Of a DNA stretch of 52,567 nt, positions 1,965-52,567 are shown piece after piece. A program made the position numbers and the translations under genes. This DNA is from Bacteroidales bacterium (GTDB taxonomy: Bacteria > Bacteroidota > Bacteroidia > Bacteroidales > JAAYJT01). A model generated the notes under the pieces. The model worked only from the letters and a program-made list of their open reading frames with translations. It did no database searches and was not told where the DNA came from. The first letter of the stretch is position 1; the number at the start of each line of letters is the position of its first letter. The stretch covers positions 1 to 52,567 of the forward strand of contig JAXMKY010000080.1 of assembly GCA_034370405.1 (NCBI GenBank), in the 5' to 3' direction.

Positions 1965-3473
1965 ATGTTTGAGGATTTCAATAAAGTGATTGGTGAGATC
2001 AGGCACAACAGCCTATCGGAAAAAGCCAAACTTTACCTGGTTTATTTCACCTCAGGGCTTTTTATTGTTTTAAACAGTTTTTTGATTTATAAAGAGTTCT
2101 TCTGGGGTGCTGTTATTCCGGCATTCATCATCATTGCATTGTTTTTTATTTTTGCCCTTGATAAAGTACTGCTACTCATTGTTTTTCTCACTCCCCTCTC
2201 GATAAACCTGCTCGACAAGGAATTGAACATAGGTATATCGCTTCCTGCTGAACCACTGATGTTCGGTTTGTTAGTGATATTTGTAATTAAGGTTTTATTT
2301 GATTTCAAATACGATCGTCAGGTGTTGCATCATCCGGTTACGATTGCAATCATATTCAATCTAATCTGGATATTCTTAACTTCCGTTACCAGCCAGATAC
2401 CCCTAGTCTCTTTCAAATTTTTCTTGTCCAGGCTTTGGTTTGTGGTGCCTATGTTTTTTGTAGCCCTGATGCTGTTGAAAAATTACCGCAATATCAATAA
2501 ATTGTTCTGGTATTACGCCATTGCCTTGGCAATCGTAATTATCTATACAACGTACCGGCACTATATCAATGGTTTTGCTGAAAAAACGGGAACGTGGGTT
2601 ATGAAACCATTTTATAACGACCACACAGCCTATGGTGCGGTGATGGCTCTATTTATCCCTGTTTTCGTAGGCTTAATAATCAATCCCGTGCAAAAGGGTT
2701 GGGCCCGCATAGCTGCGTTGTTCATGGTTGCGATGATGGTGATGGCACTCATACTTTCGTTTAGTAGGGCTGCCTGGATCAGCCTTGCAGTTGGAACTTT
2801 TGTATTCGCTATTGCTTTGTTTAAAATCAGATTACGCTGGGTGGCACTAACAGGCATCCTGTTATTTGGCATACTTTATACCTTTAAATTCGAGATATTC
2901 GACTACCTGGCAAAAAACAAGCAGGACAGCTCAGCCAATTTTGTTGAACATGTACAATCCATTGCCAATATATCGTCGGATGCAAGCAACCTTGAGCGCA
3001 TAAATCGATGGCAATCTGCAATCAGGATGTTTAACGAAAAACCCATTCTCGGCTGGGGCCCGGGCACATACCAATTTGCTTATGCACCATTCCAACAATC
3101 GAAAGAAAGAACAATCATCAGCACAAACTTTGGGGATGTGGGCAACGCTCACAGCGAATATATAGGGCCAATGGCTGAATCCGGCATATTGGGTATGATA
3201 ACATTCGTATTAATTATGCTTACAACGCTTTATACTGGTTTTAAGGTATATCGCCAATCACAGTTGCGCGAAGTTCGCCTCCTCAGCCTTTCAGTTACTA
3301 TTGGCTTAATTACCTATTTTGCACATGGAGTCTTAAATAATTTTCTTGACACCGATAAACTTTCCATTCCATTTTGGGGATTTATCGCTGTGTTGGTTGC
3401 GCTCGACCTCTACCATAAAGATCATCTTAAACAAGCGAAAGACACTGGCCTTAAGCCTTCTGCCAACTTCTGA
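1965..3473 (+). CDS. O-antigen ligase (WaaL/Wzy_C) family protein
   Basis: About 12 TM segments, with 'SFSRAAW', 'ERINRW...P.LGWGPG' and 'NAHSEY' motifs. Confidence 0.85.
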   Translation: MFEDFNKVIGEIRHNSLSEKAKLYLVYFTSGLFIVLNSFLIYKEFFWGAVIPAFIIIALFFIFALDKVLLLIVFLTPLSINLLDKELNIGISLPAEPLMFGLLVIFVIKVLFDFKYDRQVLHHPVTIAIIFNLIWIFLTSVTSQIPLVSFKFFLSRLWFVVPMFFVALMLLKNYRNINKLFWYYAIALAIVIIYTTYRHYINGFAEKTGTWVMKPFYNDHTAYGAVMALFIPVFVGLIINPVQKGWARIAALFMVAMMVMALILSFSRAAWISLAVGTFVFAIALFKIRLRWVALTGILLFGILYTFKFEIFDYLAKNKQDSSANFVEHVQSIANISSDASNLERINRWQSAIRMFNEKPILGWGPGTYQFAYAPFQQSKERTIISTNFGDVGNAHSEYIGPMAESGILGMITFVLIMLTTLYTGFKVYRQSQLREVRLLSLSVTIGLITYFAHGVLNNFLDTDKLSIPFWGFIAVLVALDLYHKDHLKQAKDTGLKPSANF

Positions 3474-3520
3474 AAATTCAAGATGAAAGCGCTCGAAAAT
3501 TGTTAATAAGTTCTTGCAGG

Positions 3521-4447
3521 TTAGAGTTTTGCCAAAAGGTCGGGCAACTGTTTTAATGCAGCCAATTCGCGCCATTTCTTTCGTGCTTCGATAGCAGGAA
3601 TACCAAAATAAATTTTACCACCCTCGAGCGATTTATCCACTCCCGATGTGGCAAGAATTACTGCACTCTTACCTATTGTTACCCCTTTTTGCACCACAAC
3701 CTGTCCCCAAAGGATTACATCATCCTCGATGGTAACCATTCCGGCAAGCAGCACTGCAGAGGCAAAGAGGCAATTTTTCCCAACAACGGTATCGTGCCCT
3801 ACATGCACATGATTATCGAATTTAGTGCCTGCGCCTATTTTTGTGACCCCAGAAACCCCTCGGTCAATTGTACAACAAGCACCCATTTCCACATTTTCCT
3901 CAATAATTACTTTGCCGCACGATTCCAGTTTGCGGTACCCCGCGGGCCGGCGCTGAAAATAAAAAGCATCGGCACCTATGACCGTGCCTGAATGAATGAT
4001 AACGTTGTCGCCAATCTCAGTGCGGTCATAAATACTAACATTGGCATGTATCAGGCAATTATTGCCTATCAGCACATGATTCCCAATAAAAGCCCCGGGC
4101 TGGAGGATGGTTCCCGGGCCAATAATGGCTGATGTACTAATCATGCGATCGGCAGGCTGGAACTGGATGAAATGTTTCACCAGGTTGGTATAATCGCCAA
4201 ACGGATCGTCTGAAAAAATGAGTACCTTGCCTATGGGTTTTTCAACCTTTTTATTAATCAGGATGGTTGTAGCAGCCGAACTCAGGGCTTTTTTGTAGTA
4301 CTTGGGATGATCAACAAAGGTGAGGTCGCCAGGTTGAACAACATGAATCTCGTTTAATCCACTGACAAGAAAATCTGGATCACCCTCAAATTCTGCCTGG
4401 ATAATTCCGGCGATCTTGCTTAGCGTGCTTGTAGGGTTCAGTTGCAT
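3521..4447 (-). CDS. lpxD: UDP-3-O-acylglucosamine N-acyltransferase (LpxD family)
   Basis: LpxD N-terminal domain (GDLTFVD..KY), hexapeptide repeats and 'IDRG...TKIG.GTKFDN.VHVGHD'. It may be the second lpxD paralog seen in Bacteroidota. Confidence 0.85.
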   Translation of the reverse strand: MQLNPTSTLSKIAGIIQAEFEGDPDFLVSGLNEIHVVQPGDLTFVDHPKYYKKALSSAATTILINKKVEKPIGKVLIFSDDPFGDYTNLVKHFIQFQPADRMISTSAIIGPGTILQPGAFIGNHVLIGNNCLIHANVSIYDRTEIGDNVIIHSGTVIGADAFYFQRRPAGYRKLESCGKVIIEENVEMGACCTIDRGVSGVTKIGAGTKFDNHVHVGHDTVVGKNCLFASAVLLAGMVTIEDDVILWGQVVVQKGVTIGKSAVILATSGVDKSLEGGKIYFGIPAIEARKKWRELAALKQLPDLLAKL

Positions 4448-7646: not shown

Positions 7647-9779
7647 ATGACCATTCAAAGTATAACATTACCTCTCCAGAATCCAGTACTGATATTTGCG
7701 CTGGTATTGCTCATCATCCTGCTCTCCCCTATTGTGTTGCGGAAGTTGCGGATACCGGGCATTATAGGATTGATTCTCGCCGGTGTCATCATCGGGCCCA
7801 ATGGACTTAACATCCTGTTGCGCGACAGCAGCATTGTGCTGTTCAGTACCGTTGGTTTGCTTTATATAATGTTGCTTTCCGGATTGGAAATTGATATGGT
7901 GCAATTCAGACGTAGCCGTCATCGAAGTATTTTCTTTGGCATGGCTACTTTTCTACTACCGCAGGTATTAGGAACCATGATCGGCTATTATTACCTGCAT
8001 TTCAACCTTTCAACTTCCACACTTCTGGCCAGCATGTTTGCCTCGCACACACTCATTACATATCCTATAGCAAACAAGCTCGGACTCGTTCAAACAGAGG
8101 CTGTTACGATAGCGATAGGCGGAACAATAATCACAAACACACTCTCGTTGCTGATCTTATCTATCATTGTTCAGCTCAAGCACAATGCATTGGATATCTC
8201 CTTTATCATGCAAATCATTTTACTTGCAGGGTTCTTTGGCATTTTGATTTTTTGGGGCGTACCGCGTCTTACCCGATGGTTTTTCAACAATTTCGCCGGA
8301 GAAGGTTATGCACATTTCCTATTTGTATTAGTGATTGCTTTTTTATCTGCCTCTATTGCACAATTAGCAAAGCTGGAACCGATCATTGGGGTTTTTCTTG
8401 CAGGCATTGCACTAAACCGGTTGATTCCCACAAATTCCTCACTCATGAATCGGATTGAATTTGTTGGAAACACTCTTTTTATTCCCTTCTTCCTCATCGG
8501 TGTGGGTATGCTTGTTGATCTAAAGGTACTGTTTCAAGACTCCGAAGCCATTAAGGTGGCTGTTGCTATGACGGTAGTGGCTACTGCCACAAAATGGCTG
8601 GCTGCTTTTCTCACACAGTTGGTGTATGGATATTCATCAACTCAGCGAAGGATTATTTTTGGGCTTACCAACGGGCAGGCTGCGGCCACGCTGGCAGCTG
8701 TTACGATTGGCTACAACCTGAGACTGCTAAACGAAAATGTTTTGAATGGCTCATTACTCATGATCCTGGTCACTTGCTTAATCGCTTCTTTTGCCACCGA
8801 ATCAGCGGCAAGGAAACTTGCCCTCGAATTAGATTCCAATCCCGAGCAGCTGACCGAAAAACCCGAGCGAATTCTGGTTCCTGTATCAAACCCCGAAACA
8901 GTTGAAAAACTTATCGAATTAGCCATCCTGGTGAAAGATCCTATGTCGGCAGAGCCCATCTATCCCCTTACTGTGATACAAGATACCAACAGTACCGACC
9001 AACAAATCGCCTATTGTCGCAAATTGATGCAACACACCATAAAACAAGCCGCCGCAGCTGATACCGTATTGCAGCTTGTTACACGCATTGACCTTAACAT
9101 AGCCAGTGGCATCATCAGGGCTCTTAACGAGTTGCAAATAACCACACTCATCATTGGATGGAATGCTAAGATGACAACCCAGGAGAAGATATTTGGAAGT
9201 GTGCTTGATACCATTTTACATAACAGCAACCAAACAATCATGGTATGCAAGCTCTTGCAACAGCTAAACACCTATAGCCGTATACGCCTGTTTGTCCCTC
9301 CGCTTTCGCATCACGAAAAAGGATTTATTCAATGGCTGAAACTGATGAGCCTGTTGAGTAAACAAACCGGCACACGCCTTGAGATCATATCCTCCAAAGA
9401 ATCTATCAGGCATATTGTAAGAGGCATTACCCTGATTAAACCACAAATTGCTGCCACTTTTATTGAAGACAACGATATGCCGGATATCAAAACATTGGCA
9501 GGTCGAGCAGGATCCGGAGACTTATTTGTATTTGTTTCTTCACGTCGCACGGCCATCAGTTATCAAGATTATCTCGACGATATACCATACCTGGCATCAA
9601 AATATTTCGAAAATCACAGCTTCATTGTGATCTACCCCGAACAGGGCGATAGTTCAACCTATGAAAGTACATTGCAACTCGATGAAGACTCCCTGTTTCC
9701 GTATCATAAAAGTCTCAGCATTATAGAAAAGTTGCAAAACCTAGTATCGAACATGTCCAAAAGAAATATTAAACAATAA
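7647..9779 (+). CDS. Cation:proton antiporter (CPA2) with a C-terminal USP-like domain
   Basis: Multi-TM N-terminal half ('GVIIGPNGL', 'GLEID', 'FIPFFLIGVGM') and a C-terminal 'ERILVPVSNPET' USP-like domain. Confidence 0.9.
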   Translation: MTIQSITLPLQNPVLIFALVLLIILLSPIVLRKLRIPGIIGLILAGVIIGPNGLNILLRDSSIVLFSTVGLLYIMLLSGLEIDMVQFRRSRHRSIFFGMATFLLPQVLGTMIGYYYLHFNLSTSTLLASMFASHTLITYPIANKLGLVQTEAVTIAIGGTIITNTLSLLILSIIVQLKHNALDISFIMQIILLAGFFGILIFWGVPRLTRWFFNNFAGEGYAHFLFVLVIAFLSASIAQLAKLEPIIGVFLAGIALNRLIPTNSSLMNRIEFVGNTLFIPFFLIGVGMLVDLKVLFQDSEAIKVAVAMTVVATATKWLAAFLTQLVYGYSSTQRRIIFGLTNGQAAATLAAVTIGYNLRLLNENVLNGSLLMILVTCLIASFATESAARKLALELDSNPEQLTEKPERILVPVSNPETVEKLIELAILVKDPMSAEPIYPLTVIQDTNSTDQQIAYCRKLMQHTIKQAAAADTVLQLVTRIDLNIASGIIRALNELQITTLIIGWNAKMTTQEKIFGSVLDTILHNSNQTIMVCKLLQQLNTYSRIRLFVPPLSHHEKGFIQWLKLMSLLSKQTGTRLEIISSKESIRHIVRGITLIKPQIAATFIEDNDMPDIKTLAGRAGSGDLFVFVSSRRTAISYQDYLDDIPYLASKYFENHSFIVIYPEQGDSSTYESTLQLDEDSLFPYHKSLSIIEKLQNLVSNMSKRNIKQ

Positions 9780-9784
9780 GAAAA

Positions 9785-10588
9785 ATGAACCAAAATGAAT
9801 TACCCGTCCTTGGATTTGGCTACTGCCACCTATCAGCTGCTCCTTTGAGGGCCGAACCCGGTGAGCGTTCCGAAATGATCTCCCAGTTACTCTTTGGCGA
9901 AACGCTGATGGTGATCGAAAAGCATCATTCATGGCGCCGAATTCGTTGCACCTTTGATAATTATGAAGGTTGGATTGACAAAAAACAGTTTGATGAAATT
10001 GCTGAAGCAGAGTTCATGCGGGTAGCCCACCTACCCAACGTTATGAGTAATGAACTGGTTCAGATCCTTTTCGACCTGAATGGAAACCGAATGTTTCCGT
10101 TGCTTATTGGCAGCTCGCTGCCCGGGCTTGCCGAGCAACAGCTTACGATAGCCGGAAACGTTTATTCATACGAAGGCTCCGTAGTGTGCCCTACCAATCG
10201 GATTTTTCCTCAACAAGTGATTGATACTGCACATCTTTATCTGCACGCGCCTTATTTGTGGGGTGGGCGCAACCCGTTTGGAATTGACTGCTCGGGTTTT
10301 GTGCAAATGGTTTACAAACTATGTGGCATTGCACTAATGCGTGATACGAACCAACAGGCTACACAAGGCGAGGTAGTGAATCTGCACAGCGAATCACGCC
10401 CCGGTGACCTAGCCTTTTTTGATAACGATGAAGAGCAAATCACGCATGTAGGCATCCTCATAGATCAAAACAACATCATCCATGCCAGTGGCCTGGTAAA
10501 AATCAATCAATTTGATCATTTTGGCATTTTTGAACAACTGCAGAAGAAGTACACGCATAAACTACGGATAATCAAACGAATACTTTAA
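9785..10588 (+). CDS. SH3 + NlpC/P60 (C40) cell-wall peptidase
   Basis: 'SEMISQLLFGE', 'PYLWGG...GIDCSGFVQ', 'PGDLAFF...HVGI...IIHASG'. Confidence 0.92.
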   Translation: MNQNELPVLGFGYCHLSAAPLRAEPGERSEMISQLLFGETLMVIEKHHSWRRIRCTFDNYEGWIDKKQFDEIAEAEFMRVAHLPNVMSNELVQILFDLNGNRMFPLLIGSSLPGLAEQQLTIAGNVYSYEGSVVCPTNRIFPQQVIDTAHLYLHAPYLWGGRNPFGIDCSGFVQMVYKLCGIALMRDTNQQATQGEVVNLHSESRPGDLAFFDNDEEQITHVGILIDQNNIIHASGLVKINQFDHFGIFEQLQKKYTHKLRIIKRIL

Positions 10589-30337: not shown

Positions 30338-30412
30338 GGTGGATAATGGGACTTGAACCCACGACCCTCAGAACCACAATCTGATGCTCTAACCAGCTGA
30401 GCTATACCCACC
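30338..30412 (-). tRNA. tRNA-His (GTG)
   Basis: The minus strand reads G(-1)GTGGGTA TAGCTCAGCTGGTTAGAGC A TCAGA TT GTG GT TCTGA GGGTC GTGGG TTCAAGT CCCAT TATCCAC C. It has G-1 and C73, CCA is not encoded, and TATTTTTG lies upstream (30424-30431). Confidence 0.97.
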
Positions 30413-43831: not shown

Positions 43832-46618
43832 TTAAAATTCAATAATCATTTGTTTGCTGTCTTCGTCGCTGCGCCGGGGCGCGATGGGTTTGGGCTCCAC
43901 CGGAGGAAATAGATCGGATAGAGAGCCTACTGCTTCCTGTTCTTGCTCCCCGGCTGTAACAAGCCCGTTAGAACAGTCTGTGCTATCTGCTTCAGCAGTC
44001 CCTGGAACTACTGAAAATCCAGTAATTGCCTGAGCACCTGCCTTGGCATCAAGCTCACCCCCATCACTGCGGCTGCTGCCATCATCAGTTTCTTTTTCTT
44101 CAGATTTAGTTAATGTGATTATTTTAATAAAGTACTTCGAGACCTTCTTGCCCAAGGCTTTCACACCCATCACTTCAACCAATTGATTAAGATGTATGAT
44201 TTCGTTGGCATGAGGTTTCTTGTTGAGTTTATCATCGTACACCACCGTAACAAGTGGATTGTCGCTGGTGCTGAAAAGAATCAGTTTGTTTAGCTCCGGT
44301 TCAGGCATGAAGGATGTCTTTTTGTCGCCATTTTCGATGACAAAGCGTTTCACAAAATAGAAATGTTTTTCGTTGTGAAAATACACGGCAGTAAGTATGG
44401 TTGCTTGGACGAATTTTTCGATATGAATCAGGTCTTCGTCGAAATGCAAGCCCAGGTCGTAGCTGGTGAGCTGGTAGGCCCCCGACTGCATGATGGTCAA
44501 TATTTTATCATCGCCGGCAAAATCTCCAAGGTAGCGGCCACGTTCGTCGGCATTGAGTCGCCGAATGCTGTCGTCGAACCAGATTGGCCGTGCACCAAGT
44601 GTTGAAACACCCTCTTCGGTTTTCACGATCTTCTGCACATGCTTCTTGCTCAGGATATTTCCTTTGGACCCTCGCCCTTTGATGGTAAGTGTGCTGAGGT
44701 CGAACTCAAAAATAAGTTTCTTGAGCCGCTTTTGGGGGCGCAAATGCACCCGTATTATCTCTGCCTCGCCATTGGGATTGGCAGTGAAATAGAGCACCTT
44801 GCTGCCTGAAACATCTCCGGTAAGGTCGTACTCTTTGTCGCGCGTGATGCCCAACACAGCAAAGCGTTTGACGTACACCGGTCCGTTTTTACCATTGCGG
44901 TAAGCCATGTTGTAGATGGTGCGGTCGTCGTTGCGTTTAAACACATCAATGTGGATGATGTGCTGGCCAACAAATACTTTCTCGGCCACCTTCAGCACCT
45001 GGAAAGTTCCGTTTTCGCGAAAAACGATGACATCATCAATGTCGGAACACTCGCACACATATTCATCCTTTTTCAGTCCCCACCCAACAAAACCAACAGC
45101 CTTGTTCACATAAAGTTTCAGGGTGGCAGCTGCCACAGCAGCAGCTTCGATGGTGTCGAAGTAGCGAATCTCGGTGCGGCGTGTGCGGCCCTTGCCATGT
45201 TTCTTCAACATCTGCCTGAAATGCTCAATGGCATAGTCAACCAAATGGTTCAGATGATTTTGCACCTGCCCCATTTCTTCCTGCATCCGTGCTATGTCTT
45301 CGTCGGCCTTCAAGGAGTTGTATTTCGAGATGCGTTTGATCTTTATCTCGGTGAGGCGGATGATGTCGTCGGTGGTGATAGAACGGATGAGCTTTTTCAT
45401 GTATGGCTCCAGTCCTTTGGCAATGGCCTCAATCACTTCCTGCCAGGTTTGGCATTCTTCGATTTTGCGATAGATGCGTTTTTCGATAAATATTTTCTCG
45501 AGAGAGGCAAAGTGAAGCATTTCAAGCAGTTCATCCTTACGTATCTGTAACTCCCTACGTAGAATATCAACCGTGTTCTCGGTTGAGATCCTGAGCATCT
45601 CTTTCACACCCAAAAATTGAGGCTTACCTTGGTAGATTACGCAGGCGTTGGGTGAGACGGCTATTTCGCACGCAGTAAAAGCATATAGCGCATCAATGGT
45701 GGTGTCGGGCGACACTCCGGGCTGCAGGTGGATGAGTACCTCAACATTTTCGGCTGTGTTGTCGTCAATCTTGCGTATCTTGATCTTGCCTTTGTCGTTG
45801 GCAGCCACGATGCTGTCAATCAATGTTCCGGTGGTGGTTCCGAAAGGCAACTCGGTGATTGACAGGATTTTTTTATCGAGCTTGTTGATTTTGGCCCTCA
45901 CGCGCACCTTGCCACCGCGCAGGCCACGGTTGTATTTCGAAAAATCGGCCAGGCCACCCATTTGAAAGTCGGGATAGAGGTCGAAATCTTGGTTTTGCAG
46001 GATTTTTATGGAAGCTTCGATGAGTTCAACGAAGTTGTGCGGCAGTATTTTTGAAGCCAGCCCCACGGCGATGCCTTCGACACCCATGGCCAGCAGCAAG
46101 GGGAATTTCACCGGTAGGGCGAGGGGTTCCTTGTTACGGCCGTCGTATGAAGATTTCCATAGTGAGGTTTTCGGATTAAACACCACATCGAGGGCGAATT
46201 TCGACAGGCGTGCTTCGATGTAGCGAGGTGCAGCAGCGCTGTCGCCTGTGAACGTGTTGCCCCAGTTACCCTGGGTATCTACCAACAACTCTTTCTGGCC
46301 TATTTGCACCAGCGCATCGCCGATCGAAGCGTCGCCATGCGGGTGATATTTCATGGTGTGGCCGATGATGTTGGCCACTTTGTTGAAACGCCCGTCTTCG
46401 AGCTCCCACATGGCATGTAAAATCCTGCGCTGCACCGGTTTCAGGCCATCGAGCAATTCAGGCACAGCGCGTTCCAGAATCACATACGAGGCATAGTCGA
46501 GAAACCAGTTCTCATACATCCCCGAGAGTGGGATCACATGATGCATCCCGTTCTGATCCTGGATGGACTCAGCATTCAGCTCAACGTCTCCTGATTCTAT
46601 GGATTTATCCTCTTCCAT
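43832..46618 (-). CDS. parC: DNA topoisomerase IV subunit A (Bacteroidota type)
   Basis: 'DGLKPVQRRIL', 'YHPHGDAS', 'AAAPRYIEARL' (catalytic Tyr), and the Bacteroidota ParC-type N-terminus 'WFLDYASYVILERA'. Confidence 0.88.
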   Translation of the reverse strand: MEEDKSIESGDVELNAESIQDQNGMHHVIPLSGMYENWFLDYASYVILERAVPELLDGLKPVQRRILHAMWELEDGRFNKVANIIGHTMKYHPHGDASIGDALVQIGQKELLVDTQGNWGNTFTGDSAAAPRYIEARLSKFALDVVFNPKTSLWKSSYDGRNKEPLALPVKFPLLLAMGVEGIAVGLASKILPHNFVELIEASIKILQNQDFDLYPDFQMGGLADFSKYNRGLRGGKVRVRAKINKLDKKILSITELPFGTTTGTLIDSIVAANDKGKIKIRKIDDNTAENVEVLIHLQPGVSPDTTIDALYAFTACEIAVSPNACVIYQGKPQFLGVKEMLRISTENTVDILRRELQIRKDELLEMLHFASLEKIFIEKRIYRKIEECQTWQEVIEAIAKGLEPYMKKLIRSITTDDIIRLTEIKIKRISKYNSLKADEDIARMQEEMGQVQNHLNHLVDYAIEHFRQMLKKHGKGRTRRTEIRYFDTIEAAAVAAATLKLYVNKAVGFVGWGLKKDEYVCECSDIDDVIVFRENGTFQVLKVAEKVFVGQHIIHIDVFKRNDDRTIYNMAYRNGKNGPVYVKRFAVLGITRDKEYDLTGDVSGSKVLYFTANPNGEAEIIRVHLRPQKRLKKLIFEFDLSTLTIKGRGSKGNILSKKHVQKIVKTEEGVSTLGARPIWFDDSIRRLNADERGRYLGDFAGDDKILTIMQSGAYQLTSYDLGLHFDEDLIHIEKFVQATILTAVYFHNEKHFYFVKRFVIENGDKKTSFMPEPELNKLILFSTSDNPLVTVVYDDKLNKKPHANEIIHLNQLVEVMGVKALGKKVSKYFIKIITLTKSEEKETDDGSSRSDGGELDAKAGAQAITGFSVVPGTAEADSTDCSNGLVTAGEQEQEAVGSLSDLFPPVEPKPIAPRRSDEDSKQMIIEF

Positions 46619-46715
46619 GTAGTATTATGAGGGCTCTCATTTATTTTGAGCCTGTAATTTAATTTTATTCATTTTCTATAAAACACAAAGAGGCATGGAT
46701 AAAAAAGTTCCAAGA

Positions 46716-46746
46716 TAAAAGGTAAAAGGGTAAAGGGTAAAAAAAG
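46716..46746. repeat. Degenerate TAAAAGG heptamer repeats, inverse of 47214-47276
   Basis: TAAAAGG TAAAAGGG TAAAGGG TAAAAAAAG. Confidence 0.7.
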
Positions 46747-46862
46747 AGGAAGGTATCAACTTTTTTTGAACTATAGCCTTTGCTTTTGCGTACTCCATCT
46801 TTTTATCTATCTGAAAAAATTCCTTCCTGTAAGCTTTTTCATTTTAACTTTTTCCTTTTAAC

Positions 46863-47210
46863 TTATAATTTGCTGAGAATTGAGCCAAGTATATTTTTTA
46901 ACTCGGTTGATTCGTTTACGAGGTATCTACATTTTTCTATATCACCTGATTTAAGATTATTAAAAATTCTTAAAAAGTAGTTTGATTCACGCATTTCTTT
47001 CAGGGAAATACCGATTTTAGTTTTAAAGTCAGGTTTTGTAGGTGACCCCTGAGATTCTTCATAATTTGCTCCGCTTGATGTTGAGGCTTTTATGAGTTGT
47101 CTTTTCATATCCATAGTCTCAATTGTATTTTTTACAGTACGCAAATACAAAATTACATCTACCGCAAATCGTAGCAATCTTTCACACAAATCTCTCTTTT
47201 GAGCTTTCAT
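46863..47210 (-). CDS. Four-helix-bundle protein (TIGR02436 / 23S-IVP / Avd-like family)
   Basis: 'DL.ER...FA', 'QLIKASTSSGANYEE', 'DF..KI.ISLKE.RES.YFL', 'ES.EL..IL'; AT-rich. Confidence 0.9.
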   Translation of the reverse strand: MKAQKRDLCERLLRFAVDVILYLRTVKNTIETMDMKRQLIKASTSSGANYEESQGSPTKPDFKTKIGISLKEMRESNYFLRIFNNLKSGDIEKCRYLVNESTELKNILGSILSKL

Positions 47211-47213
47211 AAA

Positions 47214-47276
47214 CTTTTACCTTTTCCCTTTTACCTTTTCCCTTTTACCTTTTACCTTTTACCTTTTACCTTTTCC
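47214..47276. repeat. Nine tandem CTTTT(A/C)C heptamers directly upstream of the four-helix-bundle start
   Basis: Nine consecutive CTTTTAC/CTTTTCC units counted directly. Confidence 0.95.
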
Positions 47277-47336
47277 CTTCATCCTTACCCTCACCCACTT
47301 GCTTTTATAATCATGATAGGTATATCAAGTTCAGCA

Positions 47337-49400
47337 TCAGGACAAAAAGCGCAGTGCAAGGCCTTCGAGCATCAAGAAGAACAAGGCGGCAATGATGAAA
47401 TATTTCCACAGTTGCCTTCCGATATTCATCTCGCTGATGACCTGATCTATGGGCCGGTCGCTGTTGCGAATGACGGCAAAATTAGTGATTCCTGCCTTTA
47501 CCGCCAACTCCGAAAGCTGATCGGCCGAAAGATAATCCTGCTCCGACTCGCGGCGGTCGTAATTAAAAGCCAATGCTGAAAGTATACGCTGACCTGCCAG
47601 CAAATGATAGTTACCTGCGATGTGAATGCGGTTGAGGGCATAAATCCAGGTGCGGAAGTTCAGCACCCGGTGGCCGGGGATAAACTCAAACTGCTCATCG
47701 GAACTGCGGAGGTGGAACACCTGCTCGGTGTCGGGGGTGATGTTTCCGATCAACACCGATTCGTCGCGACCGATGATGTGATACAGCGCCTGCCGTGGAG
47801 CACTCAGCAGGGCCATTTTATAAAAGGTGGGAACAAAGAGGGCGTGAACGGGGAAGTTGGTGGCATCTTTTTCGAGGGGCGCTGCCATGGCCCACACGGT
47901 GCCTTCGCCCACGCTGTTGGTGACCAGGAACGGCTGCCCGTTTTGCAATCTTACCACCACTTCCACATCGCGCCGCGATGGCATTTGCAAGCTCCAATAG
48001 TAACGAACCCATGGCAGGTCGGTCTCAGGAGGCATGATGTACCTGCCTGAAGCATCGCGTTCAAACACATCGCCATAAACAGGGTGCAACAAATCAAGCT
48101 GGTCGAGACGTGTACGACTGGTATCGCTGGTCGAGAAAGACACCGATTGAAGGCTCTCCATAAAAATGTTGTAACTGGCCCGTTCGGCTTCCCTTGTCGG
48201 GATCACCACGAGGTGACCGCCTGCATTCACAAACTTACTCAATTCGTTGGCAAGGCCACTCGAAATGCTTGACAAGCCGCTAAGTATAATGAGCTGCTGC
48301 CCGGAAAATGTGGAATAGTTGATCTGGCGAAGGTTCACCTCCTGGTATTGAAAAAGGCTGTCGGAACCGTAGAGGGTGCGCAGGTAAGGGCTGGGTTGCC
48401 GATCGCAGATCGAAAGAACCCGGATGACAGGCAACACGTTGAAAGAGAAGAACAACTGATCGTCGAAAGTAATCGGGTAGTCGCTGATTTCAATCACGCC
48501 ATTGTGCAGTCCCGTTTCGCGGATGGTGAAGGTCATGAGAAGATCATGGTGGCTGTTGGCATCGAGATCGGCCGTGGCAAGGGTGCGCTGAATGCCATTG
48601 ATGAGGAGCTTCACGGGAATTTTTTCGTATTGCTGGGTGCTGTGGTTGGTGATTCTTACATGAAGCTGTGCCACTTGTCCGGGTTGTTGCACCGGCACAG
48701 CAAACCAGCAAGTATCAATGCTGAGGTTTTGCAGCGCACCGGCTGTGAGCGGAAGGAAGAAATGTCTCAGGCTTGTATCGGTTTTGGCAGGGTCGGCTAT
48801 GGCCATATTGCGCTGGAAGTCGCTCAACAGGTAGACCGAAGCATGTTCTTTATTTCCGGTTCGCACAATGTCATACTGGCGCTGCAGCACATCGGAAATA
48901 GCCCGCACCGAAGGTGAGAGTTCCACTTCTTCGATAAGCGATAGCATTTCGTCGGCAGTGAAAAGGTGATGGTGGCGGCCATCGAAATCGTTGGTAACCA
49001 AGCCAAAACGCGCTGCGCGCGGATGGCCTTTCACCACCCCAATGGCCTTTTGCCTGGCTTCGTCAAGCAAACGCCCTGCATCGCCTTGAGCTTCCATGCT
49101 GAATGAGTTATCAATGTATATGCTTACCACCTCTTCGCTGCCTGCCTTGTAGCCGTGGATGGGGGGCAGGTAGGGCCGGGCAAAAGCCATCACCAGCATT
49201 GCAATGGCCAGCACACGGCTCAGCAATGCCAGCCAGTGGCGCAGACGCCTCTGCTTTTTCGCCTCGAGCTGCAGCTGCCTGAGAAAGCGTACATTGGTGA
49301 AATACACCTTGCGGTAGCGTTGCAGGTTAAAAAGGTGCAACAGTATGGGAATGGCAATAGCCAGCAGCCCCCACAGGGCGTTGGGGTTGGTCAGTAACAT
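47337..49400 (-). CDS. BatA-domain / VWA membrane protein (N-terminal double-TM family)
   Basis: 'LWGLLAIAIPILLHLFN..R...YF.N.RFL', 'AFARP', VWA 'IDNSFSM', 'LSDFQ', and C-terminal 'LWKYF' plus TM. Confidence 0.88.
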   Translation of the reverse strand: MLLTNPNALWGLLAIAIPILLHLFNLQRYRKVYFTNVRFLRQLQLEAKKQRRLRHWLALLSRVLAIAMLVMAFARPYLPPIHGYKAGSEEVVSIYIDNSFSMEAQGDAGRLLDEARQKAIGVVKGHPRAARFGLVTNDFDGRHHHLFTADEMLSLIEEVELSPSVRAISDVLQRQYDIVRTGNKEHASVYLLSDFQRNMAIADPAKTDTSLRHFFLPLTAGALQNLSIDTCWFAVPVQQPGQVAQLHVRITNHSTQQYEKIPVKLLINGIQRTLATADLDANSHHDLLMTFTIRETGLHNGVIEISDYPITFDDQLFFSFNVLPVIRVLSICDRQPSPYLRTLYGSDSLFQYQEVNLRQINYSTFSGQQLIILSGLSSISSGLANELSKFVNAGGHLVVIPTREAERASYNIFMESLQSVSFSTSDTSRTRLDQLDLLHPVYGDVFERDASGRYIMPPETDLPWVRYYWSLQMPSRRDVEVVVRLQNGQPFLVTNSVGEGTVWAMAAPLEKDATNFPVHALFVPTFYKMALLSAPRQALYHIIGRDESVLIGNITPDTEQVFHLRSSDEQFEFIPGHRVLNFRTWIYALNRIHIAGNYHLLAGQRILSALAFNYDRRESEQDYLSADQLSELAVKAGITNFAVIRNSDRPIDQVISEMNIGRQLWKYFIIAALFFLMLEGLALRFLS

Positions 49401-49452
49401 CTCTGAAAGTTAGTTATATATCAGTATTATTAAGTACAGTGAAAGTTGATTT

Positions 49453-49917
49453 ATGAACAGTGATTAACGATTTTTGATTTATGATTTATAGTTTATTGTT
49501 TTGACTATTTTTCTGTGCAGTTTCAACACTTTTCACAAAAATAGATATCAACTCATTGCTTTCGTTCAGGGCAAGAATAATTTTATCTTCTGATTTATAG
49601 AGTTTTGTGCGAAATATAATTTTCAAACAGATATTGGTTTCCCTCAATTCTTTCAAAACGATTTTTATTTTGTGGATAAAATCTCTGCGAGATTCTCCGC
49701 TTTGGGCCTCACCATAATTTAATGCAGGAGACGTTCCTGATCGCAATAACTGCCCCGCCAGATGGTTTGACTCTTTTGTATCAAACATCGTTTTACTGAT
49801 TTCAACAATCAATACTGCAAAATTTATTAATCGTTCTTCAAGGTCGTGCTTATTCATACGTTTACTTTGATTCCTTGTTTCTTCTTCGCATATCATAAAT
49901 CGTTAATCATTATTCAT
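49453..49917. repeat. Inverted repeat pair bracketing the second four-helix-bundle gene
   Basis: ATGAACAGTGATTAACGATTTTTGAT (49453-49478) matches the reverse complement of 49892-49917 (ATGAATAATGATTAACGATTTATGAT) at 23/26. Both arms show 7-bp periodicity. Confidence 0.8.
49486..49857 (-). CDS. Four-helix-bundle protein (TIGR02436 family), second copy
   Basis: 'DLEERLINFA', 'QLLRSGTSPALNYGEAQSGES..DFIHK....LKELRET', 'E..ELI.IF'. ATG 49857 is preferred. Confidence 0.92.
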   Translation of the reverse strand: MNKHDLEERLINFAVLIVEISKTMFDTKESNHLAGQLLRSGTSPALNYGEAQSGESRRDFIHKIKIVLKELRETNICLKIIFRTKLYKSEDKIILALNESNELISIFVKSVETAQKNSQNNKL

Positions 49918-50010
49918 TATTCATTATTCTTCCTGATTCTTCCTGGATGGTAGGATTTACACCTCAGGTTCCGATCAGCGATAAAGGTTATACGGCAGGA
50001 TTAATTTCAT

Positions 50011-50466
50011 TTAGTTCTCTCTTAGCACATATTCGTCGTATTCGATCTCGAAGCGCAGCTTGTGTTTCGACTCTTCGATGGCCAGCGACAGGAAAAGCTG
50101 GCGCAGTTCTTCGCTTCCCGATCGTTCGGCCAGGCGGCTGTAAAGCTTGAAGGCTGCTTTTTCGCGTTTCATGGCCAGCACCAGGGCTTGTTCGTAGCTC
50201 ATTTCGGGGGTGGCTTCCGATCGAACCACAAAGTCGGCAATCTTAAGGTCTTGCACTGTGCCCGCATGGGCTTCGAGGATGCCTGTTTCCTTTACTTGCA
50301 TCAGCTTGGCTTTGTGGTCCATCTCTTCGCGTGCAAATTGGGCAAACACCGATTTCATCTCGTGGTTGGCAGCATTTTCGGAAAGAGAGGTATAGAAATC
50401 AACTGCGCTTTGCTCCTGTTCGATGGCAAAGTCGAGTATTTCGTTGACGGTGCTGAATTTATCCAT
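50011..50466 (-). CDS. Rubrerythrin/ferritin-like protein
   Basis: 'ILDFAIEQE..A..FY', 'EE..H', 'AMKRE..A...Y', 'EE.KH' diiron motifs; start at MDKFSTV. Confidence 0.9.
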   Translation of the reverse strand: MDKFSTVNEILDFAIEQEQSAVDFYTSLSENAANHEMKSVFAQFAREEMDHKAKLMQVKETGILEAHAGTVQDLKIADFVVRSEATPEMSYEQALVLAMKREKAAFKLYSRLAERSGSEELRQLFLSLAIEESKHKLRFEIEYDEYVLREN

Positions 50467-50526
50467 AGGCTTGGTTGTATAGAATTGAAGGGTCAAAGGT
50501 AGGGAAAATTTGAGGACGTGAGGGAA

Positions 50527-50575
50527 GTGATGTGGTGATGGAGTGATGGGGTGATGGAAGTGATGGAGTGATGGG
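50527..50575. repeat. Six tandem GTGATG(NN) 8-9-bp repeats
   Basis: GTGATGTG GTGATGGA GTGATGGG GTGATGGAA GTGATGGA GTGATGGG. Confidence 0.85.
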
Positions 50576-50702
50576 ATGATCATTGTTTTGAGCAAGTGTT
50601 AAATATCATAAATGAATATTTTTAGTCCTATGTAGATTTTGCATCATTCTTTTGTATATTTACGGCTTTGGAATTTTCATTGCAATACGAAACAATAAAA
50701 GC

Positions 50703-51866
50703 ATGAAACCCACGGTGGTACTGGAACCCGGAGAGCATCACGGGCAAGAGGTGGTATTTTTGATTTTTCCGAAGGACGAGCAACTCATAGCTGAAGTGAA
50801 AAGGCTGGGGGTAGCGCGCTGGAGTACAACACAGCAAAGGTGGTATATTCATAGAGAGCGATTTGTGTTATCAGATGTGTTCAATGCCTTTCAAAAATTA
50901 GCTTTTGTAGATTACAGTGCGCTGAAAAACGGCAGATCAGTTTCACCTGCCACTGCCACTGCCACTGCCCCTGCGCAACCTTCCATTAACTACAACAAGC
51001 CCAAATTGCCACAATTAAGTGCTGATAAAGCCGCCAGGATTAATGATTTCCGGTACTGGATGCAGCAAAAGCGTTACAGTAAGAATACCGTAAAGACTTA
51101 CACTGATGCCATCAGAACTTTTTTGCGCTATTATGCTCACCGCGAATCTTCGACATTATGCAATGACGATCTTGTGCGGTTCAATACAGATTATATTCTA
51201 GCGAACAAATACTCACCAAGTTACCAGAACCAGGTGATAAATGCTATCAAGCATTTTTTTGCTCAACAGTACCAAACTAAAATGGATATCCAAGGGATTG
51301 AAAGGCCCCGGCGTGGCAGCAAGTTGCCCAAGGTGATTGACAAAGGAGATATACAAGCCATGTTGGCTGGCATTTCAAATTTGAAACACAAAACGGCACT
51401 CGCATTGATTTATGGCTTGGGTTTGCGACGCTCGGAGCTGATCAATATGAAGATCAGGGATATTGATTTTAACAGAAAGGTACTGACCATTTTCAACGGG
51501 AAGGGGCAGAAAGATCGTGTGCTTCCGATAAGTGATAAGCTCATCCGTCTTATTCAGCAGCATCTGGCAACTGCAACTTCTCTTGTATATGTGATTGAAG
51601 GGCAAACCAAGGGACAGCCTTACAGTGCTACAAGCGTTGAAAAGATTTTTGAAAAGTATATGGATAGCGCAAAAAGAAATCATAATTTTACACCACATTG
51701 CCTCAGGCATTCGTATGCAACCCATTTGCTTGAGGCGGGTGTTGATTTAAGATTTATACAGGAGTTGCTAGGACACAAAAGCAGCAAAACGACAGAAATA
51801 TATACCCATGTCAGTATGAAAAACCTAAGCAAAATAAAGAACCCGACCGATGATTTCGATTTGTAA
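50703..51866 (+). CDS. Tyrosine recombinase, integron-integrase-like (SAM-like + catalytic domains) with an extra N-terminal domain
   Basis: Intact catalytic set: R (GLRRSE), K (GKGQKDR), HxxR (HCLRH), H (LLGH), Y (TTEIYTHV). 'YSKNTVKTY' marks the SAM-like domain. Confidence 0.9.
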   Translation: MKPTVVLEPGEHHGQEVVFLIFPKDEQLIAEVKRLGVARWSTTQQRWYIHRERFVLSDVFNAFQKLAFVDYSALKNGRSVSPATATATAPAQPSINYNKPKLPQLSADKAARINDFRYWMQQKRYSKNTVKTYTDAIRTFLRYYAHRESSTLCNDDLVRFNTDYILANKYSPSYQNQVINAIKHFFAQQYQTKMDIQGIERPRRGSKLPKVIDKGDIQAMLAGISNLKHKTALALIYGLGLRRSELINMKIRDIDFNRKVLTIFNGKGQKDRVLPISDKLIRLIQQHLATATSLVYVIEGQTKGQPYSATSVEKIFEKYMDSAKRNHNFTPHCLRHSYATHLLEAGVDLRFIQELLGHKSSKTTEIYTHVSMKNLSKIKNPTDDFDL

Positions 51867-51930
51867 TAAGAAACACCTTAGGGTGTACATAGCATACCAT
51901 ATGCATGTGCTAAGAAGATAAAAGGTGTGG

Positions 51931-51950
51931 ATATAAACAAGTTGCTGCGG
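51931..51950 (+). other. attI-like recombination site (ATATAAACAA-G/TTGCTGCGG)
   Basis: AAAC-AA-GTT core 74 nt after the integrase stop, similar to the attI1 core AAAACAAAGTT. Confidence 0.55.
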
Positions 51951-52319
51951 AATTTTAATCCGCGGCCCGTTCTTTGAAAAAAATTGGAAGGAGTAAAATA
52001 GCTGCTAAGCTACGGGATTTCTGAAGGAAACAGGCTCGGGAATTTTCGTATGAAACGCGAAAAAGTTCACTTTTACCAGCGTGAGTACGCTGAAATTCCC
52101 GGCAAAGTTCTGAGAAATTTCTGACATTATCAAATTTCGCAAAGAACTTTTAGCTTAGCAGCTATTTTGAAGGGTTTGTTTTTTACGGTCAAAATGAAAG
52201 CTGATAGCTCCCCGAACCGCTATCAGGCAATAATTTTGGCCTCAAAGAACGGAGCCTTTGAAGGGGATTAAAACTGTCAGTTTTTTCTAATGACTGACTT
52301 CATGAAAAAACTCCGCACA
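51941..52319. mobile_element. ORF-less, highly structured putative gene cassette
   Basis: The ends are complementary (GTTGCTGCGGA / TCCGCACA[AC]). It contains many nested perfect IRs and has no ORF of 60 aa or more in the track. Confidence 0.6.
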
Positions 52320-52567
52320 ATCGAGTAGGCTGCCCCACCAGCGAAACTGATGGGGAGAGCCTCTCACACCACTGTACGTACGGGTCTCGTATACAGCGGT
52401 TCGTCAGGTATCAGTACTATCGCTCATTACACCAATAGTACCTCTGCCTTTGTTTAGGATAAGGCTGGCAAACTCGAAGTTTGAACCTCCTTATCGAATT
52501 CGAGACAACCCAACGTTCTGCCCTTCACTGGCTTGTGAGACCTCCGCTTTATTCATCGGCTCGTTAC
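52320..52567 (-). ncRNA. Group II intron, class IIC, 3' part (end of DIII, ORF-less DIV, DV, DVI); 5' part outside the window
   Basis: On the minus strand: DIII end GAAGGGCAGAAC; DV ACCGCTGTATACGAGACCCGTACGTACAGTGGT with a CGC triad (52368-52400); DVI GAGAGGCT...AGCCTACTC with a bulged A; terminal AT at 52320-52321. Confidence 0.9.

Follow-up and report, generated by a model that had tools for sequence, protein, structure and literature searches.

The 3' end of an ORF-less class IIC group II intron in a Bacteroidales contig and its relatives at attC-like hairpin repeats in the Bacteroidota

The window analyzed here is a stretch of 52,567 nucleotides from a Bacteroidales bacterium, which makes up the whole of contig C80 in the 189-contig genome assembly G000. 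It contains the 3' terminal 248 nt of a group IIC intron at positions 52320-52567 on the minus strand, and since the window is the entire contig, the intron runs off the end of the assembly at 52567. The window copy belongs to a widespread non-autonomous lineage in the Bacteroidota, the members of which insert at ...TGT|T a few bases past a hairpin repeat of about 140 nt and antisense to the flanking genes. The window probably holds the 3' end of a non-autonomous IIC intron for which the reverse transcriptase (RT) is provided in trans by an autonomous relative. For the family, there is good support for mobilization in trans; for the window copy, it is a hypothesis.

Read along the minus strand, the intron end starts with the 3' part of DIII and the J3/4 motif GAAGGGCAGAAC (52516-52567), which is cut by the contig end and aligns with the 3' half of the matches to RF01998 (group-II-D1D4-1) in two relatives, L012 and L016. 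It is followed by a DIV without an ORF (52402-52515, minus strand), as delimited by the minimum free energy fold, the RNAalifold consensus and pair counts over 26 sequences. This domain is closed by a helix of 8 bp, in which 52515-52508 are paired with 52409-52402, and DIV is therefore 112 nt long. The helix includes the pairing of GTTGGGT (52514-52508) with ACCTGAC (52409-52403) right after the DIII end motif that was described in an earlier note, made from the sequence alone, and the length given there is also recovered. Instead of the three hairpins reported in that note, the fold gives two on the closing stem, namely a composite hairpin 1 (52495-52458) and hairpin 2 (52442-52413), with an extension of 5 bp (52507-52503/52449-52445).

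DV (52368-52400, minus strand), as defined from the RF00029 alignment and the fold, has a 2-nt bulge and a CGC triad at 52398-52396, which aligns to the AGC of the RF00029 model. In DVI (52320-52366, minus strand), A52326 is a single bulged base in the 3' strand, located 7 nt from the intron 3' end, ...CUACUCGAU, at 52320, and this 3' end is common to 13 aligned copies. The 3' exon (TGTGCGGAGTTTTTTCATGA; 52300-52319, minus strand) is the 3' flank of the target hairpin. That DV and DVI are intact, with the CGC triad and the bulged A, was borne out by the fold and by a match to RF00029 (DV and DVI) at 52401-52320 on the minus strand, with a score of 39.0 bits and an E-value of 4.6e-6 in a search of 768 nt. 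The Rfam check suggested in the earlier note thus recovers the intron, with a score under the gathering score. This score is 40 for RF00029, 1 bit above the match, and the intron is consequently missed by a default Rfam scan; at the gathering threshold, the scan of the whole window returned a tRNA only and no intron. A tRNA gene is located at 30338-30411 on the minus strand (65.7 bits). The whole-genome search of G000 with RF00029 gave the window match again, plus two stronger introns on contigs C18 and C122.

The segment 52530-52320 folds with -80.6 kcal/mol, as compared to -60.6 +/- 4.6 kcal/mol for 200 shuffled sequences (z = -4.35), none of which folded as well. For the covariation analysis, the window sequence was aligned with 25 of 29 homologous stretches, with the near-duplicates L058, L054, L045 and L042 left out. 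The RNAalifold consensus of these 26 sequences contains 42 pairs. In total, 95.0% of the cells pair, as compared to 30-51% when the partners are slid, and double changes were identified in 22 of the 42 pairs, as compared to 5-9 in the slid controls. None of 500 shuffles reached any of the covariation measures; the alignment rows are related, with six of the 26 taken from one genome (G405), so the shuffle counts overstate the signal, whereas the slid controls are unaffected. The covariation in this short DIV is strong, and the loop of hairpin 2, GGUGNAAAGAGC, is near-invariant.

No trace of an RT was found in this domain. The region 44000-52567 is overlapped by 35 ORFs with a length of 50 aa or more, none of which extends beyond 51866. 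No RT remnant was detected in the DIV of the window, where the stretch at intron positions 110-165 (about 52458-52403), with hairpin 2 in it, shows no resemblance to the RT-bearing relatives, in agreement with the previous description of the domain as free of an RT ORF. Hairpin 1 is common to the window and the RT-bearing relatives, with 72-75% identity, and DV together with the start of DVI is 100% identical over 50 nt to one of them (L024). Two RT-bearing relatives, L024 and L026, have DI-DIII, hairpin 1 and DV-DVI in common with the ORF-less family, and between the shared parts they contain an ORF of 438 or 467 aa that runs into DV. RVT_1 and GIIM domains were identified in the encoded protein, which is without an endonuclease domain.

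Searches against the PDB with the RT of the ORF-bearing relatives yielded nearly full-length matches to the GsI-IIC RT (6ar1, 1.1e-96) and to the 7uim RT (2.9e-96), and far weaker matches to LtrA (1e-40) and the 6me0 RT (2.6e-31). The best PDB matches were all IIC RTs (6ar1, 7uim, 5hhj, 5hhl). Among the best 40 rows of the tblastn ranking for this protein, the cognate RTs are from Bacteroidota (62-72% identical), the next are class C RTs from Firmicutes with at most 43.6% identity, and no integron intron is included. A CGC in place of AGC as the DV triad is a mark of class IIC. Taken together, the triad, the class C RT of the relatives and the hairpin with a TGT|T target place the family in class IIC, as the earlier note had assumed, with the class C intron-encoded protein (IEP) found in the ORF-bearing relatives only.

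The lineage is widely distributed. The 166 nt upstream of DV match sequences in 29 of the 401 genomes that represent the order in our sample, and in 23 when counting is restricted to the 343 of high quality. A 21-base motif from DIV was identified at 30 loci on 19 contigs, with hosts in Bacteroidales, Prolixibacteraceae, Tangfeifania, Saprospiraceae, Chitinophagales, Cyclobacteriaceae and Rufibacter. The motif is present in three metagenome-assembled genomes (MAGs) that are labeled Burkholderiales, Legionellaceae and Desulfobacteraceae, labels that we do not trust without a check. Unannotated copies were also recovered from plasmids of Chryseobacterium sp. SNU WT5 and Persicobacter sp. In G405, at least nine copies with different flanks were identified, and the two copies in G081, a genome in a single contig, are 88-90% identical to the window in the part upstream of DV.

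ORF-less copies with both ends recognizable (L013, L016, L017, L041, L058) are 606-714 nt long, and the relatives match RF02001 and RF01998, that is, DI-DIII. Between the true intron 5' end, GTGYGCC, and the conserved ...CCAGAGGGTGAAAGTCCC, there is an additional hairpin of about 65 nt. An internal GTGTG was rejected as the 5' end, because aligned flanks and copies in tandem showed that GTGYGCC, about 105 nt further upstream, is the end. In these tandem arrangements (L017, L060), the second copy begins 1-4 nt past the 3' end of the first, and the intron's own 3' hairpin thus seems to have been used as an insertion target. A sublineage (L042-L054, L069 and L070 in G405; L012/L055 in G081) has about 60 nt inserted into the upper DV, and the CCUA stretch around the branch A is missing from some of its copies; despite the insertion, at least nine copies of this sublineage are present at different sites in one genome.

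Upstream of GTGYGCC, about 130 nt are common to 13 copies from different genomes, and the sequences further upstream are unrelated. These 130 nt were rejected as a part of the intron, since an HMM of the stretch (nhmmer) identified an independent and mostly unoccupied repeat at 15 places in G000 (E<1e-4), of which 5 continue into intron 5' sequence and 10 do not. The repeat is an imperfect hairpin of about 140 nt, the stem of which ends 2-5 nt before the insertion point, and no Rfam family was found for it. The 5' junctions end in TGT in 16 of 21 cases, and the first base of the 3' exon is T in 13 of 14. The flanking genes are located on the opposite strand in each of the ten contigs examined, and the stop codon of a gene abuts the 3' side of the repeat there. 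In the window, the 21 nt at 52300-52320, which include the 3' exon, are identical to an unoccupied and shorter hairpin site at C102:42-62. The empty site of the window copy was deduced from C102 and from read-derived contigs of two sequencing runs, X1 and X2, to be ...AAAGT|TGTGCGG.

A short relic of the family was also observed on an E. coli plasmid (NZ_CP037909.1; L085 3001-3082), where 82 nt of DV-DVI with 78.6% identity are located 22 nt past the stop codon of tet(X4) in a convergent orientation. Among 543 matches, 294 are Escherichia records. The arrangement is the same as in the Bacteroidota, which fits an origin of the tet(X4) region in that phylum.

The suggestion in the earlier note that the intron parasitizes cassette recombination sites stands in part, for the shape and position of the target. 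An attC-like hairpin located behind genes is used, the intron is in antisense orientation, and in three relatives (L013, L052, L054) the hairpins are repeated at intervals of 1.4-2 kb with the same orientation. Most repeats in G000 are single on their contig and hence mostly dispersed, and no canonical integron integrase was found next to them. A neighboring gene, at 50652-51866 on the plus strand and 453 nt from the intron 3' end, codes for a Xer/IntI-like tyrosine recombinase of 404 aa, which scores 216.9 bits against NF040815 (cut-off 220) and 192.1 bits against TIGR02249 (cut-off 265), the latter in two separate stretches, with profile positions 184-240 left unmatched. These positions correspond to the IntI-specific segment, which the protein is thus without. 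Its best PDB match is XerA-like (4a8e, 3.9e-42), and IntI4 (2a3v, 2.4e-34) is matched in two stretches. No integron integrase above the TIGR02249 cut-off was identified in the whole G000 genome. With the recombinase below the cut-off and most repeats single, the target is best called attC-like. A paralogue of the recombinase is encoded at C100:7006-8772; both proteins have an N-terminal extension of about 130 aa, and a hairpin repeat is located downstream of both genes in the same relative orientation, at 0.45 kb in the window and about 1.4 kb on C100.

The proximity of the recombinase could mean that the intron, or its DIV module, is a domesticated element that serves the hairpin repeat or the recombinase, for example as a block to recombination or as an outward promoter. 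We consider this very unlikely. The distance of 453 nt, the similar placement of a hairpin repeat about 1.4 kb downstream of the C100 paralogue, the outward promoters that are reported for IIC-attC introns (PMC3001079), and the covariation in DIV, which implies selection on the RNA structure, would all be in line with such a role. However, a requirement of the fold for mobility would produce the same covariation, and copies of the family occupy many unrelated loci without a recombinase.

The intron in the window is flanked by a segment of 380 nt (51941-52320) that occurs more than once in G000; two other contigs, C114 and C145, terminate in this segment. Its left edge, ...GGATATAAACAAGT|TGCTGCGG at about 51929-51950, resembles the hairpin insertion site in inverted orientation, and the segment contains a perfect inverted repeat of 17 bp (AAAATAGCTGCTAAGCT) with the two arms about 150 nt apart. 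An inversion of the segment between its inverted ends was rejected, because the loose ends in the X1 and X2 contigs do not fit. In the RNA run X14, a contig with 12 differing letters covers 52035-52197, which is the only match in that run, and none was obtained on the intron.

The occupied junction at 52320 could also be a chimeric join of flank and intron in the MAG. In both X1 and X2, a contig that contains 51941-52320 with no differences (depth 46.2 and 40.7, respectively) continues for 78 nt into an empty hairpin site, and no contig among those listed bridges the occupied junction; the flank is also a repeat in which other contigs end. On the other hand, the join falls exactly at the insertion point of the family, with ...CUCGAU, then T, then a hairpin 3' flank of the C102 type, which argues against a chimera, and flank and intron have no repeat in common that is long enough to mislead an assembler. 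An artefact of this kind is therefore extremely improbable. An exact-match metagenome scan for the occupied junction returned 0 stretches. We do not claim a presence/absence polymorphism at the window locus, as the flank is repeated and the empty-site contigs may derive from paralogues that are indistinguishable from alleles.

Other contigs of the same runs extend the intron beyond the window. A 266-nt contig in X1 continues 24 nt past the window end, and a 512-nt contig in X2 (depth 233.5), which covers 52373-52567 with one differing letter, continues 317 nt past 52567, and it is thus unlikely that the window copy is without DI-DIII. At least three other exons are joined to the same intron 3' end in X1, at 52314-52319, and a loose end at 52402 in X2 joins an RT C-terminus to the same DV. 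The depth of the intron part is 2.0 times (X1) and 5.7 times (X2) that of the flank, where depth is not the same as copy number.

Within the G000 assembly, there are no sister copies of the 248 nt, and the DI-DIII region and 5' exon of the window copy are missing from it. Intron 5' ends were identified at the ends of contigs C94 (138 nt) and C66 (91 nt) behind other hairpins, and both were rejected as the missing 5' half of the window copy, since their hairpins mismatch the window 3' exon, which is fitted by the C102-type site. There are also 5' intron stubs on C111 and C147. An internally deleted copy of 350 nt is located behind a hairpin repeat at C35:1675-2023, and it keeps the 5' end, a part of DI (RF02001, 54 bits) and a DVI-like 3' end, without DIII-DV. 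No contig in the MAG is shorter than 2568 nt, so a collapsed intron repeat would have been dropped from it.

A cognate RT was not identified in the G000 assembly either. The only RTs obtained there are encoded by the introns on C18 and C122, with 33% and 34% identity to the RT of L024, respectively, and both of these introns have a DV with an AGC triad and are of other RNA types; for the C18 intron, a match to RF01999, another DI-DIV model, was obtained as well. The RT-bearing intron on C122 (L084 2528-2609, 2762-3135) ends about 150 nt from a tmRNA gene on the opposite strand. The sister copies and the RT-encoding relative for which the earlier note had proposed a search are thus both missing from the assembly, and the window copy may be stranded, or its RT may be located elsewhere.

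We compared the RT content of 30 family-bearing genomes, using the RT of L024 as the query. Most of these are MAGs, so an absence is weak evidence. A near-full-length cognate RT without a stop codon and with at least 65% identity was identified in five of the 30, namely G094 (the source of the query), G080, G308, G140 (in two pieces) and G411 (intact, 65% identity), and copies with a stop codon were present in G407 and G412. The remaining genomes contain RT fragments only, unrelated RTs, or nothing. Among them is G405, in which a contig of 6.2 Mb with at least nine ORF-less copies has no intact cognate RT. About 30 copies of another group II RT, with a frame of 519 aa that is 35-36% identical to the class C RT, are clustered in a few regions of G405 contig C4 (e.g., 2.05-2.18 Mb).

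The two forms are found together on plasmids from two isolates. On the complete Chryseobacterium plasmid NZ_CP041688, an ORF-less copy (about 3441-4033) and a cognate ltrA intron (about 8502-10355) are located 5 kb apart. The two are 98.1% identical over the 530 nt of the hairpin and DI-DIII and 82.5% identical over DV-DVI, and they have unrelated DIVs, with the hairpin 2 loop of the family in the ORF-less copy. This mosaic pattern suggests, from sequence comparison, that the ORF-less lineage has recombined with the resident autonomous copy. The Persicobacter plasmid likewise has ORF-less and RT-bearing forms together. The claim that the intron is mobilized in trans is thereby supported for the family, with many copies at different hairpin sites, a preserved hairpin 1 and both forms on two plasmids, and falls short for the window copy, the genome of which encodes RTs with only 33-34% identity.

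The missing cognate RT could also indicate that the window copy is a fossil, that is, an immobile relic of a past invasion, too young to have decayed and inactive now. This explanation, which we regard as rather unlikely, would also account for the truncated or internally deleted copies on C35, C111 and C147. Similarly, the genomes G002 and G006 of the same genus contain only 5'-truncated RT-type fragments that keep the last RT codons, with a disrupted DV in the G006 fragment, and in G081 both ORF-less copies are broken, with only short cognate RT fragments and no other group II RT at E<=1e-10. The window copy further has two private changes at highly conserved positions, at 52519, where it has an A in place of the T found in 24 and the C found in one of the 25 remaining sequences, and at 52426, where the X1 and X2 contigs carry the family consensus base and the window does not. 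Yet these are the only deviations in 109 conserved columns, at the low end of the range of 0-21 in the family, and DV is identical to that of RT-bearing relatives. The elevated depth of the intron part, if not a copy number, and the at least three other exons joined to the same 3' end in X1 also speak against a relic, and an RT-bearing repeat may be missing from a MAG without contigs under about 2.5 kb.

In the reading that we favor, a non-autonomous intron served in trans, the family keeps what appears to be a complete ribozyme, with DI-DIII, a DV with the CGC triad and a DVI with the branch A. The RT ORF in DIV would have been replaced by a conserved module of 112 nt, composed of hairpin 1, which may represent the RT-binding DIVa, and hairpin 2, which appears only in the ORF-less lineage. 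The intron RNA would reverse-splice into a single-stranded hairpin target, like IIC introns, and cDNA synthesis would depend on a class C RT acting in trans, in a partnership that resembles that of SINEs and LINEs. Under this scheme, the window copy may be stranded at present, or its RT may come from a repeat that is missing from the assembly or from a plasmid that is present only transiently.

A more far-reaching proposal, which we put forward tentatively as a possibility, is that the ORF-less form is an old, self-perpetuating, SINE-like lineage that has its own DIV module, spreads between orders, swaps its 5' part with the resident class C intron and outlives its partner. If so, attC-like hairpins in the Bacteroidota would be colonized mainly by RT-less ribozymes, and hairpin 2 would either recruit a foreign RT or free the ribozyme from the maturase. 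A conserved RT-less lineage would represent a bacterial counterpart of the SINE/LINE pair for group II introns. For experiments on splicing and retrohoming, it would provide a small natural IIC ribozyme, about 600-700 nt in length, that inserts at a defined DNA hairpin. Pipelines that rely on an RT ORF or on the Rfam gathering score will miss such introns, as illustrated by the score of the window copy against RF00029.

Both ORF-less bacterial group II introns and IIC-attC introns have been described. IIC-attC introns insert in the bottom strand of attC, antisense to genes, at a TTGT/T site (PMC3001079, PMC7923331). ORF-less bacterial group II introns are described as rare and as located nearly always beside closely related IEP-encoding copies, reviews treat them as recent derivatives of parent copies, and a cyanobacterial example is served in trans by related IEPs (PMC4424553). 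A preprint from 2021 counts more ORF-less introns and, in its accessible part, describes no lineages (10.1101/2021.09.28.462093). In the full-text literature covered, we found no RT-less IIC lineage with a conserved DIV of its own at hairpin repeats in the Bacteroidota.

In comparison with these systems, the family resembles the IIC-attC introns of proteobacterial integrons (S.ma.I2 and relatives) in the class C ribozyme and RT, in the insertion at hairpins opposite to genes and in the target, which is TTGT/T-like in those introns and (N)TGT|T here. It differs from them in that the lineage has no RT ORF, that the cognate RTs form a Bacteroidota clade with 62-72% identity among themselves, and that the target repeats are about 140 nt, conserved in sequence across families and without a canonical IntI beside them. 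C.te.I1 of Clostridium tetani is also ORF-less in a genome without an IEP gene (PMC4424553); unlike the family described here, which is multi-copy, intergenic and targeted to hairpins, it is single, located inside a gene and alternatively spliced. The solved IIC systems (the GsI-IIC RT, 6ar1, and the 7uim RT) represent autonomous introns, whereas the window copy has no RT, and the DI of the family differs from theirs by the additional hairpin of about 65 nt that follows the intron 5' end. With the ORF-less introns served in trans, the family has in common the lack of an IEP, an intact-looking ribozyme, several copies per genome and, on two plasmids and in G411, a co-resident cognate IEP. In contrast to these, most assemblies with the lineage show no intact cognate RT, and the ORF-less form is here a separate lineage with its own covarying DIV module, present in several orders.
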